DNA of 5,245 bases from a virus (lineage: Duplodnaviria > Heunggongvirae > Uroviricota > Caudoviricetes), in the IMG/VR virus record IMGVR_UViG_3300018467_000008, positions 1 through 5,245 of that record. One strand, 5' to 3'. This document shows, one piece after another, positions 1 through 5,245 of this stretch. The notes under the pieces were generated by a model that was given only the letters and a program-made list of their open reading frames with translations, was not told the origin of the DNA and made no database searches. The translations under genes were made by a program, and so were the position numbers. Within the stretch, counting starts at the first letter, position 1; every line of letters starts with the position of its first letter.

Positions 1-552
1 ACCGGCTTCTTCATTTTCGCCCAGCAGAACACCAACTTCGGAAGTACCATCAGCTGTTGCCCACTCCATAGTGCGACCGTCAGAAGTGGTCAGAATCTGC
101 GCCACACTGGCGATGCCACCGTAGGATTTCATCTTCTCAACAACTTTCGCCAGGAATGTTTCTGGTACGGTATATCCGCCCTTTTCATCCTGAGCTACCC
201 CCTGGGCACGAAGTTCACGCAACGCCTTTCGTTCTTCTGATGTCAGCTCACTGGCACCGTGACGCATCCACTTATCAAAAACCTGAGCTCGTTTCTCATC
301 ATGTTGCGGATTGTTTTCCGGATCAAGATTCTGACGCTGCTCTTCCTCATTGCTTTCAATGTACGCCTGATCCTGACGACGCAGTTCTTCTTCGCGTGCA
401 ATTCGTTCATCAAGCGCTTCCAGTTCGGATTTTGCTTTGTTCCACTCAGTGCGCTGCTCTTCCGTCCATGCGTTATCACCAATTTTTTCATTCAGGGCGC
501 GCATGTCAGTTGCGATAGTATTACGTTTCTGTTTCAGTTCATGCAGTTTCAT
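1..552 (-). CDS. Major capsid protein, HK97 family, N-terminal 184 codons only (C-terminus lies beyond the window start)
   Basis: ATG at 552..550 preceded by AAGGAAACATC (Shine-Dalgarno AAGGAA, about 5-nt spacing). The frame is open all the way to position 1 with no stop. Translation begins MKLHELKQKRNTIATDMRALNEKIGDNAWTEEQRTEWNKAKSELEALDERIAREEELRRQDQAYIE, a charged, heptad-like helical N-terminus typical of the HK97 delta (scaffold-like) domain, followed by ...DEKGGYTVPETFLAKVV, which resembles the start of the mature capsid domain. It sits immediately downstream of the prohead protease, the canonical HK97 order. Not in the ORF track because it is truncated by the window edge. Confidence 0.85.
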   Translation of the reverse strand, partial: MKLHELKQKRNTIATDMRALNEKIGDNAWTEEQRTEWNKAKSELEALDERIAREEELRRQDQAYIESNEEEQRQNLDPENNPQHDEKRAQVFDKWMRHGASELTSEERKALRELRAQGVAQDEKGGYTVPETFLAKVVEKMKSYGGIASVAQILTTSDGRTMEWATADGTSEVGVLLGENEEAG

Positions 553-562
553 GATGTTTCCT

Positions 563-1165
563 TTACGCGTTAAGAAGGGTCAGGACGCGTTCACGCGCCA
601 TACGTTGATTAATGGCTTTCTGTAGCGCGCCACTGTTGCGCGCCTCCTGCCATGCTTTCATGGAGCGAACAGCCGAGTCAGCCTCCTGATAGGCAGGATA
701 TGTCACAGGACTGACATCCAGCAGACGGGAAAAGCGGGTTATCTCGCGAATAACAACCCCGTCCTCATCCTGATACCACTCCTCACCGTCACGGGCGACA
801 CGGAAAGCGAAAGATGACTGGTTAATATCTCCACATTGCATCGGGGCCAGCACCAGATCACGAATGGTCTGTGTCTCCGGAGCCTGGATGTCATAGCGTA
901 ATCCGCGCTCATCAACTGAAAGATTCAGCGTGCCTGCTGCACTACGCCCAAGAATAAAATTAGGATCGTGGTTAAACAGTGCGCGTACATCATCACCAAG
1001 CACATCGTCAAAAGCGCCGGGCCGGATGATTTCGCGGAATGAACCGAATATCAGCTCAGAACGACAGTCAAACACCGATCCATAACCGATAATGTGCGCC
1101 GGGTTATCGTCATGCCGCTCAGCACGCACCTCACCGCTGTAACAACGGATTTCACGGTCATTCAT
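563..1165 (-). CDS. Prohead maturation protease, HK97 family (S78/U35-like)
   Basis: Minus-strand ORF with TAA stop at 565..563. Translation MNDREIRCYSGEVRAERHDDNPAHIIGYGSVFDCRSEL...FNHDPNFILGRSAAGTLNL... fits the size and position of a prohead protease, between portal and capsid. Preferred start is ATG 1165..1163, which has GAGGG 8 nt upstream and overlaps the portal stop (ATGAATGA). The ORF track's longer version starts at ATG 1222 (219 aa) but has no convincing ribosome-binding site and overlaps 65 nt of portal coding sequence; ATG 1180 is a third option. Confidence 0.85.
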   Translation of the reverse strand: MNDREIRCYSGEVRAERHDDNPAHIIGYGSVFDCRSELIFGSFREIIRPGAFDDVLGDDVRALFNHDPNFILGRSAAGTLNLSVDERGLRYDIQAPETQTIRDLVLAPMQCGDINQSSFAFRVARDGEEWYQDEDGVVIREITRFSRLLDVSPVTYPAYQEADSAVRSMKAWQEARNSGALQKAINQRMARERVLTLLNA

Positions 1166-2384
1166 TGGTTTTTCCCTCATCGTTTTTTGGGGGCTTAAAA
1201 TCTCCTGCCGGGTTAGCAGCATTCACGCTTACCAGCATCTCATCCAGCCCTTCAACCGGATTCATATCCTCGAATGCGCGGGCCTCATTACGGCTCATCC
1301 ATCCATCGGTAATAGCGAAGTGATAGAATTGCGCGCGCTCCTGCGGAGTTCCGCGTAAAAGCCCCGTCAGATTGAACCTGACGTAATACCCGGCGGCTAA
1401 CTCAGCGCGGGTAAACAAGCGACGGTTAAGCTCCTGCTCCCAGTTCGTCACCCACGGCATCATCGTGTAGCGGACAAACTGAATCGCCTGCGCAGAAATA
1501 TTGGAGAAGGTGGCTTTTTCGAGGTCATTAATCATGTGCGCAGGAATATTGAAAATACCGGCGATCATTGAACGGTTCAGCTTCATCATGTCAATGATCT
1601 GAGCGTCAACTGGCGACACAGTCAGTGCCTTGTAATCCAGATCGGCTGGCAGCAGCATGGTTTTGTTTTCCTGGCGGCGTAACGCCTGCGATGCCTTCTG
1701 CCACTGATCTTTAAGCCAGCCCCAGCTTTCCTTATTGAGTCCGCTTTTAACGGATACTATCCCCGCCGGACGGGCATTACCGCTGAAGAAGCTTTCTGTG
1801 TACTTCTGACCGCTCATCCCCATGCCTATTGTTTCGGCATGTTGCATAATCGGACTCAGCCCCATCTTCTGATTATTACCCAGCGCACGGATGTGGATCA
1901 TATCGTCCGGACTGATCGCAAACGCCCCATATTCGTTGTACAAACCGTAGGTATATCGGCCACCAGTATTCATCAGCGTCGTTTCCCACGGCATACAGCA
2001 ATCCAGGGATATGACTTCACCGCGACGATTACGTTTCACCCAGGTATATCCATTCCCCCAGCCAAGGATGTGACGTTGCTTCAGTTCGCGCCATTTGTAG
2101 CTGGTTTGCCAGGTATTGGGCTCATCATGAACCAGATAAAACGCAGGATGATCGCGTGCGGGTTCAACCTTCCCCTTGTACCTGCGCATAACATGCAACG
2201 GCATCTGGGCAAGGCTGGAAGACAGGACATAGATACAGGAATACACCGCAGCCAGTTTCATCGCAGTCTCAGGACTGACATAAACGTCTGCCCGGAACAG
2301 CCCATCAGTATCAACGGCATCCCCGGTTATCGGGGTGGAAGGATTCTCCAGTGATTTACTTCTGAACAGAGCATCAAGCAGCAC
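1158..2384 (-). CDS. Portal protein, HK97 family
   Basis: About 408-424 aa minus-strand ORF, TGA stop at 1160..1158. It lies between large terminase and prohead protease. The region ...LFRADVYVSPETAMKLAAVYSCIYVLSSSLAQMPLHV...HPAFYLVHDEPNTW...ILGWGNGYTW has the look of an HK97-type portal core. Start chosen as GTG 2384..2382, preceded by GAAGGGGGACGC (Shine-Dalgarno-like), giving an N-terminus [16 protein letters not shown]. The track's GTG 2432 start would add a Trp-rich 16-aa extension ([10 protein letters not shown]) with no ribosome-binding site, which I judge less likely. Start is uncertain within 2261-2432. Confidence 0.9.
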   Translation of the reverse strand: MLLDALFRSKSLENPSTPITGDAVDTDGLFRADVYVSPETAMKLAAVYSCIYVLSSSLAQMPLHVMRRYKGKVEPARDHPAFYLVHDEPNTWQTSYKWRELKQRHILGWGNGYTWVKRNRRGEVISLDCCMPWETTLMNTGGRYTYGLYNEYGAFAISPDDMIHIRALGNNQKMGLSPIMQHAETIGMGMSGQKYTESFFSGNARPAGIVSVKSGLNKESWGWLKDQWQKASQALRRQENKTMLLPADLDYKALTVSPVDAQIIDMMKLNRSMIAGIFNIPAHMINDLEKATFSNISAQAIQFVRYTMMPWVTNWEQELNRRLFTRAELAAGYYVRFNLTGLLRGTPQERAQFYHFAITDGWMSRNEARAFEDMNPVEGLDEMLVSVNAANPAGDFKPPKNDEGKTNE

Positions 2385-2535
2385 GCGTCCCCCTTCTGGC
2401 CATAGCCAGTGCGCCCACCAGCAGTAAAGCACCGGACAAAATCAGAGCCGGAGCCATACCAAACTGCAGGTAAACCCCGCACGTAAGCAGGCCAAAACCA
2501 GCCAGCCCGATAACATCAGCAATTAGTGATTTCAT
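2374..2535 (-). CDS. Hypothetical small hydrophobic protein (53 aa, two predicted transmembrane segments) between large terminase and portal
   Basis: Read directly from the sequence, not in the ORF track. ATG 2535..2533 overlaps the large-terminase TGA stop (2534..2532) as ATGA; TGA stop at 2376..2374 lies 6 nt past the preferred portal GTG start. Translation: [53 protein letters not shown], two hydrophobic stretches and a basic C-terminal tail. Codon usage is CTG/GGC-rich like the neighbours. No Shine-Dalgarno upstream, so expression would depend on translational coupling. It overlaps the alternative extended portal frame, so it could be a chance ORF. Confidence 0.4.
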
Positions 2536-4265
2536 AGAATTAAGAGATCATCGTCCGGATCAAGAGATGAGAGGAAATCGTCAGGTTCTTTGAGCATTGC
2601 CCGACCGATCGTCATAATCAGTGCAACCGCACCATCGATTTTGTTTTCCGCCTGCTCCTTGACGGGCTTCACTAAATCATCGTTACCTGGCATGTTTTTG
2701 CCGACCACATTGCCGATACACCAGGTCATGATGGGATTGCCGTCATGATGAAAGCGTCCCGATTCAATCGCTGCTTCCAGCTCTTTCATAGGATCGGACA
2801 TATTGGCGAAGTTCTGGACGATAGTGACGGGATTCAGATCTTCATCAGCAAGGTCATGTGACAGCCCGGTCGCCCCGAAGGGGTCGATGGGTGACTCACT
2901 GACCGGGCTGATTTTGTTCGCCGCTTTGGCCTCTTCGAGGATGTAGCGATAATCCACCTCTGCACCATCGGTAACGGTCAGGACGCCCATTTCCACCCAT
3001 TTCTGAAAGCGTTCGGCTGTCCGTCTATCTTCATTTTTCTCGACGCTGTACACCGTGTCATACGGTACCCAGAAACGCGGGGCTACACTGTAGTAATGCG
3101 TTTTACCGTCAATCTCGCGGGTATAAAGTCGCGCCATGCTGTTCATATCCAGTTTACGCGCCAGGTCAAAGGCCAGAATGCACGGCTGCCCCTCGAACTG
3201 CTCAAGGGACAGTGATTTATCCTCGCAGCTCTGCCAGCTCACCAGGTTGAAATACGCCGAACGCGCCGACACCCAGATATTGAGGTGTTTTGTTTTAAAG
3301 ACGTTTGCCAGACGGGCGTTATTTTTCGCACGCTGCTGCTGACTTAACAAAAATTCGCGATAAACCGACACGCCAATATTTGGATTGGCTTTTTCCAGCA
3401 CCTGCGGGTCGGTCCAGTCGTCACCTTCATCAACGGTATAGATGATCCCGAACAGTTCATCGTTAGGCACCGAGCCGTTGAGCATCTCGATGACTTCCCG
3501 CCGTTTGTCGTAGCACGGCCCCTCAATGTTGTACCCGGCGGTAGTGATAGCCCACATCAGTGGCTGACGTCGCGCCCCCATCCCGGTAAGCATCGTGGTG
3601 TAAAGCGCATCTGTGGCGTGCTCGTGATATTCATCCACCACGGAACAGTGGGGTGATGAACCATCACCGGGGTTACCGATCAGCGGTTCAAACCGCGCGC
3701 CATCCTCCGGACGATTCATGTTTGAGGCGTTAACCTCAATCCCGAACGCTTCCGTCAGCATGGGTGTGCGTTTACACATCAGTCGCGCCGGGCGAAAGAC
3801 TTCCCACGCCTGTTTCTCTGTCGTGGCACCGGAATACACTTCCGCGCCAAACTCGTTATCACAGGCAAAACAATACAGGGCAACACCGGCAGAGATTGCC
3901 GATTTGCCGTTCTTACGGGGGATTTCGGTATACACCTCCCGGAAGCGGCGCAGCCGGGACCCTTTATTGACCCAGCCAAACGCACAGCAGACCACAAATA
4001 GCTGCCACGGCTCCAGCGTGATGGGCATCCTCTTGAATGCCCACTCACCCTTGGTGTGCGGCAACAGCTGAATAAATTTGGCGGCCCGTTCAGCCAGGTC
4101 CTTGTCGAAGCGGTAACGAAACGACTTACTTTTTTCCGCCATCAGGTCATCAAGATGGCGCTGGCAGGCCTGAATCACAAACTGGCAGGCCACAATCTTT
4201 CCGCGCACAACATCACGGGCATACTGATTGGCAGCATTTACGTTGGGGTAAGATTTCCGGCTCAT
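2532..4265 (-). CDS. Terminase large subunit (ATPase/nuclease), Terminase_1-like
   Basis: 577-aa minus-strand ORF, ATG 4265..4263, TGA stop 2534..2532. Walker A-like P-loop EIPRKNGKS at about residues 114-122 and Walker B-like hhhhDE in [10 protein letters not shown] at about residues 206-215. The C-terminal half is acidic, consistent with an RNase H-like nuclease domain. Its start overlaps the small-terminase stop (ATGA at 4262-4265) and it is followed by the portal, the canonical order. Confidence 0.95.
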
Positions 4266-4756
4266 GATTCGATGATTTTCAGAAACGGGTTAGTGGCTTT
4301 CTTCTGCCCCGCCAGGCCAATCAGACGCTGGCGGCTGCTGGGGTCGAGTCCGAGCATTGCCCCCGTGCTGCTCATCTCGGACTCCTGTTCTTTTTTGGCG
4401 GTCAGCTCCGGATTTTTGACCCTGCCGCCCATTGCACCGGTGATGGTGTTGCCCTGTATGGCAATATTTTTCACGGCACGTCGCCAGAACTCATAGGCCA
4501 CGCACCACCGCTCAAGCACCGCGAGGTCAGTCACGCACAACAGGCCCTGACCGCAGAGTTCTTTGGTTGTCAGTTGCCACATGATCGTGGCGAGAGGGAG
4601 ATCTTCTTCAGCGAACCACTCTGGTGGCTCAACACCTTTGATGGGCGTAAAAACAGGTTCATCTTTGTTCAGGGCTCGCTTGCCGGGGTTTCCGGCCAGC
4701 GCCTTGCGCGCCGTTGGCTTGGGGCGACGCCCGGAACGCCCCGCCGTTCCAGCCAT
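4262..4756 (-). CDS. Terminase small subunit, P27 family (Terminase_4-like)
   Basis: Minus-strand ORF with TGA stop at 4264..4262. N-terminal [34 protein letters not shown] matches the characteristic GRxGRPPKPTxLKxLxGNPGKRPLN signature of P27-family small terminases as I recall it. Preferred start is ATG 4756..4754 with AGGAG 8 nt upstream; the track's GTG 4765 start lies directly against that AGGAG and is unlikely. Immediately upstream of the large terminase with a 4-nt overlap. Confidence 0.9.
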
Positions 4757-4795
4757 ATGCGGCACTCCTGGTTAAATTTCATTTTTCGCGGGTAT

Positions 4796-4854
4796 AAAAA
4801 AACGATGGGGCGGGCAGTCCTGAAGGCGTCAGGTCACAGGGATTTGGCCCGCCC
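4796..4854 (-). terminator. GC-rich hairpin followed by a T-run on the minus strand in the HNH-small terminase intergenic region; terminator-like, or part of the cos/packaging-site region
   Basis: Plus-strand 4808-4815 (gggcgggc) pairs perfectly with 4847-4854 (gcccgccc), an 8-bp all-GC stem around a 31-nt loop. The loop holds a nested 5-bp hairpin (cctga 4819-4823 / tcagg 4829-4833). Read on the minus strand, the stem is followed by CATCG and then seven T (plus-strand A-run 4796-4802). The 5-nt spacer before the T-run and the large loop are atypical for a textbook intrinsic terminator. Confidence 0.3.
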
Positions 4855-4880
4855 TCCCCTCTGGCAGTGGGAACTGGTTC

Positions 4881-5229
4881 TTACTTCAGCCGTTCACGGG
4901 CCGTCTTCGCCTTATGACACGGCCAGCACAGGCTCTGCAGATTGCTGTCGACATCAGTGCCGCCATGCGATTTAGGGATGATGTGGTCAACGGTCTTCGC
5001 CTCACGCACCACACCAGCACGCAGACATAACTGACACAGGCCTTTGTCACGCTTCAGGACACGCGCGCGGATACTGTCCCACTTGGTACCGTAGCCACGC
5101 TGGTGGCGGGACTGGCCTGGCTTGTATTGCTTCCAGCCTTCGCTTTTGTGGCTTTCGCAGTAGCCTGACGGGTCTGTGGTGGTATTACGGCAACCTCGAG
5201 CACGGCAGGCTTTCGGGATTCGTGGCGGC
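4881..5229 (-). CDS. HNH endonuclease (phage packaging-associated), N-terminus missing at the contig end
   Basis: Minus-strand frame open from 5229 down to TAA stop at 4883..4881. Translation read by hand: ...PPRIPKACRARGCRNTTTDPSGYCESHKSEGWKQYKPGQSRHQRGYGTKWDSIRARVLKRDKGLCQLCLRAGVVREAKTVDHIIPKSHGGTDVDSNLQSLCWPCHKAKTARERLK. It contains paired Cys motifs (CQLC ... CWPCH) and the DH...N...H core of the HNH fold. No start codon is reached before the adapter-like sequence at 5230. Located directly upstream of the small terminase. Confidence 0.9.
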
Positions 5230-5245
5230 AGATCGGAAGAGCGTC
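5230..5245. other. Illumina TruSeq adapter fragment (sequencing/assembly artefact) at the window terminus
   Basis: The terminal 16 nt, agatcggaagagcgtc, are identical to the first 16 nt of the Illumina universal/Read-2 adapter AGATCGGAAGAGCGTCGTGTAGGGAAAGAGTGT, recalled from memory rather than searched. The sequence stops there, cutting the HNH ORF before its start codon. Confidence 0.85.

Follow-up and report, generated by a model that had tools for sequence, protein, structure and literature searches.

Gene content of the contig

The stretch of DNA analysed here (the window, 5,245 nucleotides) is an entire assembled contig, ena:ERZ27272474:k141_20310 (5245 bp, range 1-5245). This contig was found by exact look-up of its edge gene product (RSSDLPPRIPK..., 120 aa), which returned exactly one contig. 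Note that a k141_ name follows the convention of the assembler MEGAHIT, with a final k of 141. The genes described below lie on the minus strand and are given in the order in which they are read, starting from the high-numbered end of the window.

The HNH endonuclease gene comes first, with codons 2-116 and the stop codon intact (4881..5228; translation and Pfam), and is followed by a predicted cos site (4807..4816). The small terminase subunit gene terS (4262..4756) belongs to the P27 family (Terminase_4; PF05119, E=4e-20; annotations), and the large subunit gene terL occupies 2532..4265 (PF03354, PF20441). Further along are the genes for the portal protein (1158..2384; PF04860, E=6e-98), an HK97-family prohead protease (563..1165; PF04586, E=2e-40) and the major capsid protein (1..552; PF05065). 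The last is represented by its N-terminal 184 codons and is cut by the other end of the contig. No adapter was present at this base-1 end, and relatives align from window base 1. A strongly hydrophobic open reading frame of 53 aa w/o Pfam match (2374-2535) lies between terL and the portal gene and overlaps both; gene calls at this position exist for the source contig as well as for E. coli 135 (WP_000838376.1, a hypothetical protein).

The nearest matches to the window are E. coli prophages of poultry and duck isolates (99.8-100% identity). The Shigella phages SfI, SfIV, SfV and SfII are 87-93% identical to it at the nucleotide level across the HNH/cos region, and their HK97-type module has the same gene order (HNH - cos - terS - terL - portal - protease - capsid) and like Pfam families. 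In its biological content the contig is unremarkable: a head-and-packaging module of an SfV/SfI-like E. coli prophage.

The contig ends in library adapter

The last 16 bases of the window (5230-5245, plus strand) read AGATCGGAAGAGCGTC and are preceded by ...TTCGTGGCGGC. The published adapter texts are AGATCGGAAGAGCGTCGTGTAGGGAAAGAGTGT for read 2 and AGATCGGAAGAGCACACGTCTGAACTCCAGTCA for read 1 (PMC8722114). AGATCGGAAGAGCGTC agrees at 16/16 positions with the opening 16 bases of the TruSeq-type read-2 adapter of Illumina, which is the complement of the universal adapter. Adapter bases 14-16 (GTC) tell the read-2 form from the read-1 form, which runs on as ...GAGCACA; beyond GCGTC, the read-2 adapter continues as GTGTAGGGAAAGAGTGT. 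The 16-mer is unique in the window when up to 3 mismatches are permitted, and shuffled sequences gave a mean of 0.03 matches at equal tolerance. The chance of an exact 16-mer match is 2.3e-10 per position. The original prediction, that the window closes on the start of the TruSeq adapter, was thus exact in both sequence and coordinates.

To determine where the genomic sequence stops, we compared the end of the window with its relatives. The complete chromosomes of five E. coli strains (135, HYM1, T-HYM1, LP-26-E1-261 and OZ392478) align from base 1 to 5230 or 5233 at 99.8-99.9% identity, and none aligns further. After the break, the relatives read T-ATGTACTAATCTCC, whereas the window reads G-ATCGGAAGAGCGTC. 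In direct alignment, GGCGGCAG-ATCGGAAGAGCGTC of the window stands opposite GGCGGCAT-ATGTACTAATCTCCG... of E. coli 135 and T-HYM1. When the last 446 bases were searched, matches came from 1118 E. coli and 14 phage records with a homologous HNH gene, none of them extending beyond window position 5236. Occurrence of the 16-mer at the homologous position, which had been named beforehand as the observation that would speak for genuine phage sequence, was found in none of these records.

Bases 5231-5245 are thus demonstrably non-genomic, the relatives differing from 5231 onwards, and the A at 5230 agrees with the genome. We take this A to be the dA-tail/adapter base expected under standard ligation chemistry, matching the genome by chance. 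Since the first adapter base here equals the genomic base, BLAST alignments enter the adapter by one base.

The 16-mer is a terminal feature of public viral contigs

As the window and the contig are coextensive, the terminus that carries the 16-mer is a real contig end. The 16-mer stands on the plus strand at the 3' end and reads outward from the contig. A 31-nt probe spanning the junction, GGGATTCGTGGCGGCAGATCGGAAGAGCGTC, gave 0 matches in each of IMG/VR, the JGI metagenomes and the GTDB genomes, indicating that neither this contig nor a second one with the junction is present in those collections.

As a control, we scanned IMG/VR for the 16-mer itself, which is present in at least 120 contigs. 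Among the matches listed, 81/81 lie within 154 nt of the end of the locus (median 13 nt), and all point outward. Where IMG/VR contigs extend past the 16-mer, they continue with the remaining adapter, GTGTAGGGAAAGAGTGTAGATCTCGGTGGTCGCCGTATCATT, and then with poly-A. One locus (L007, 1-70) carries the whole universal-adapter complement followed by poly-A, a second (L050) a degraded copy, and a third (L048) adapter at both ends. In assembled contigs the 16-mer therefore behaves as a terminal artefact, with a geometry equal to that in the window. The likeness to adapter read-through in other IMG/VR contigs extends to sequence, terminal position and outward orientation; the difference is one of extent, with 16 nt kept in the window versus the whole adapter plus poly-A in some public contigs.

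We conclude with high confidence that 5230-5245 is a remnant of the library adapter, a sequencing artefact and not phage DNA. An adapter at a contig end is ordinary contamination with nothing novel about it, and the feature is not real. The original view of the terminus as artefactual is borne out by an adapter that sits at the true contig end, points outward and is missing from relatives.

The HNH gene is complete except for its start codon

The insert/adapter junction falls in the start codon of the HNH gene (5229..5231, minus strand). In five relatives compared at this position (three E. coli prophages, SfI and SfV), 5229-5231 reads CAT (ATG on the minus strand), versus CAG (CTG on the minus strand) in the window. 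The HNH protein of E. coli 135 (WP_001135095.1) has 116 aa and corresponds to window-equivalent 4881-5231 on the minus strand. The matching interval of the window translates as LPPRIPKACRARGC...KTARERLK*, in which residues 2-116 are the same as in WP_001135095.1 and only residue 1 differs. Both N-terminal zinc-ribbon-type motifs (C9-x4-C14 and C25-x2-H28) are kept, as is the stop codon (4881-4883), and the HNH domain (PF01844, E=7e-17, residues 65-111 in Pfam) is C-terminal. The proposal that the N-terminus of HNH is missing therefore fails: all 115 codons after the ATG are present, and the sole change is ATG to CTG. What is lost are the first 1-2 nt of the coding sequence and the Shine-Dalgarno region, the complement of which (...CTCC...) is found in all relatives.

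Note that the gene call of the source (4884-5243, minus strand; L002:3-365) enters the adapter and gives a 120-aa product starting with RSSDL. The first four residues of this product, together with Leu in place of Met1, come from adapter-derived bases, so that a chimera stands in a public protein collection.

Zinc-ribbon HNH endonucleases adjoin cos, and their motif classes have been described (PMC3592412). In HK97, gp74 acts together with TerL and promotes cos cleavage (PMC9410871). The gene in the window shares with this packaging class the HNH domain, the place beside cos and terminase, and the N-terminal CxxxxC/CxxH arrangement. An HNH gene in this location fits the packaging-associated HNH class.

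A mosaic joint at the start of HNH

What precedes the HNH gene is variable even among close relatives and differs among all of the Sf phages and prophages compared. Five references (L001:3432-3700, L127, L128, L003 and L005) all read ...GGCAT and are mutually different from there on. Most HNH matches in E. coli records end within ~13 nt of the ATG, and a 469-bp probe across the HNH start is covered to >=80% by only 21 of the 2981 E. coli records that match it. The homology break at the HNH ATG and ribosome-binding site is a sharp mosaic joint. In E. coli 135 the region beyond it, where the chromosome continues as NZ_CP080260.1:3988184-3991183, holds a small hypothetical gene and then the lysis cassette. 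The suggestion that upstream late genes are missing from the window is accordingly right in a loose sense, given that what lies there varies.

Separately, a stretch of ~120 nt upstream of HNH in E. coli 135 (L001:3503-3622, outside the window) has conserved counterparts in many E. coli records without this HNH gene, at 87-98% identity among the matches listed. It often has no annotated feature or lies beside DUF2560 genes.

The presence of a mosaic joint raises the question of why the contig ends where it does. The adapter could be artefactual and the contig could nevertheless have been bound to end near here, not at a random coverage gap, with the assembly graph branching at the joint upstream of the HNH start. 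The low coverage of the start-spanning probe (21/2981) and the divergence of the five references right after CAT are in line with this scenario. However, a branch alone would leave a genomic contig end, and an adapter tip of 15 nt set against real branches would normally be clipped. We consider this explanation possible but rather unlikely as the main cause; a branch at the mosaic joint may have been a secondary contributor to the contig end. That the junction falls in a start codon is probably a chance coincidence. By a rough estimate, start and stop codons take up <1% of the window positions, and the coincidence was noticed post hoc.

The packaged end is predicted to lie inside the window

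An alternative raised in the original prediction was that the adapter marks a genuine end of packaged phage DNA. Direct sequencing of the ends of SfI virion DNA identified a 10-nt cohesive end, TGCCCGCCCC, and the published SfI genome is linearised such that it starts at terS and finishes at cos (PMC3636060). SfIV, SfII and SfV are reported to have the SfI cos, and the SfIV group is described as packaging from cos with unique ends (PMC3851460).

The window carries an identical 10-nt cos: 5'-TGCCCGCCCC-3' occurs as an exact match on the minus strand at 4807..4816, downstream of the HNH stop codon by 64 nt and upstream of the terS ATG by 50 nt. It lies 413 bp from the adapter junction, and the contig is continuous across it. 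Reading through cos implies a template in prophage, circular or concatemeric form, as opposed to packaged linear DNA. The junction is located in the HNH start codon and not at the cos sequence. The packaged terminus of this phage group is thus predicted to be 4807-4816, inside the window, and not the contig end.

We also considered whether the junction might correspond to the ends of the SfI, SfIV and SfV records, since BLAST matches touched those ends. This was rejected, as the record ends map to 4807-4824 (the SfI record end opposite window position 4807, the SfV record end opposite 4824).

TruSeq-type adapters ligate to any DNA ends, and real termini yield adapter-flanked pile-ups. An adapter ligated to a real in vivo or virion end (cos, pac or a recurrent double-strand break), with 5229 as a physical terminus, would likewise leave adapter at the junction, and the junction does fall on a gene start at which prophages show a mosaic joint. 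Against this stand the SfI-mapped cos, conserved 413 bp away where it would be expected, between HNH and terS, the SfI and SfV genomes as deposited, which end at the cos region and not at the HNH start, and a contig that runs unbroken through cos in a group for which unique cos ends are reported (PMC3851460). A physical terminus at 5229 is therefore very unlikely, and the packaged-end alternative is not supported. We regard as likewise very unlikely the more specific version in which genuine double-strand ends arise repeatedly at 5229, on the mosaic joint, e.g. through a recombination or nuclease hotspot marking the module boundary, with the adapter ligated directly to such an end and not to a random shear point. 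Finally, the idea that the 16-mer is genuine genomic sequence resembling adapter by chance, e.g. at a novel mosaic joint, is extremely unlikely: real variability upstream of the HNH ATG means that divergence from the references is no proof by itself, but the match is exact against the chance expectation given above, it destroys the ATG (CAT to CAG) and the Shine-Dalgarno complement kept in five aligned relatives, and it stops exactly where the contig does, pointing outward as is typical of the artefact.

The caution in the original prediction, that no element boundary, cos or att site should be read from this terminus, is well founded, the end being adapter and cos lying elsewhere.

Proposed origin of the adapter end

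The adapter identity of the terminal bases, their terminal position, their absence from relatives and the intact HNH frame are direct observations. Returning to the reading of 5230-5245 as library adapter, we propose the following course of events. A fragment of a ligation-type library would have ended at 5229 and been dA-tailed, giving rise to the A at 5230. If this fragment was shorter than the read, read 2 would have run ~16 nt into the adapter, making the insert approximately the read length minus 16. Adapter trimming would have been absent or incomplete. With no better-supported path into the true upstream sequence to compete, the assembler would have kept the adapter k-mers as the contig end.

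This scheme makes predictions for the underlying reads. If the end is an adapter artefact, a single fragment or a small number of them, or their duplicates, should be soft-clipped at 5229/5230 into AGATCGGAAGAGCGTCGTGTAGGG. The mate should carry AGATCGGAAGAGCACACG where the insert ends on its far side, around 5096 for 150-nt reads. Any remaining reads would be expected to continue into ATATGTACTAATCTCC or a different upstream variant.

Implications

The value of the finding is mainly one of hygiene. Adapter remnants are common at contig ends in the public viral collection IMG/VR, and in the present contig 5230-5245 should be trimmed before genes or boundaries are called or the sequence is submitted to a database. 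The consequence for the gene content is small, the encoded HNH protein being otherwise complete, and in annotation HNH should count as complete apart from the start codon. In conclusion, the biologically meaningful terminus of this packaging module would be the predicted cos at 4807-4816, inside the window.
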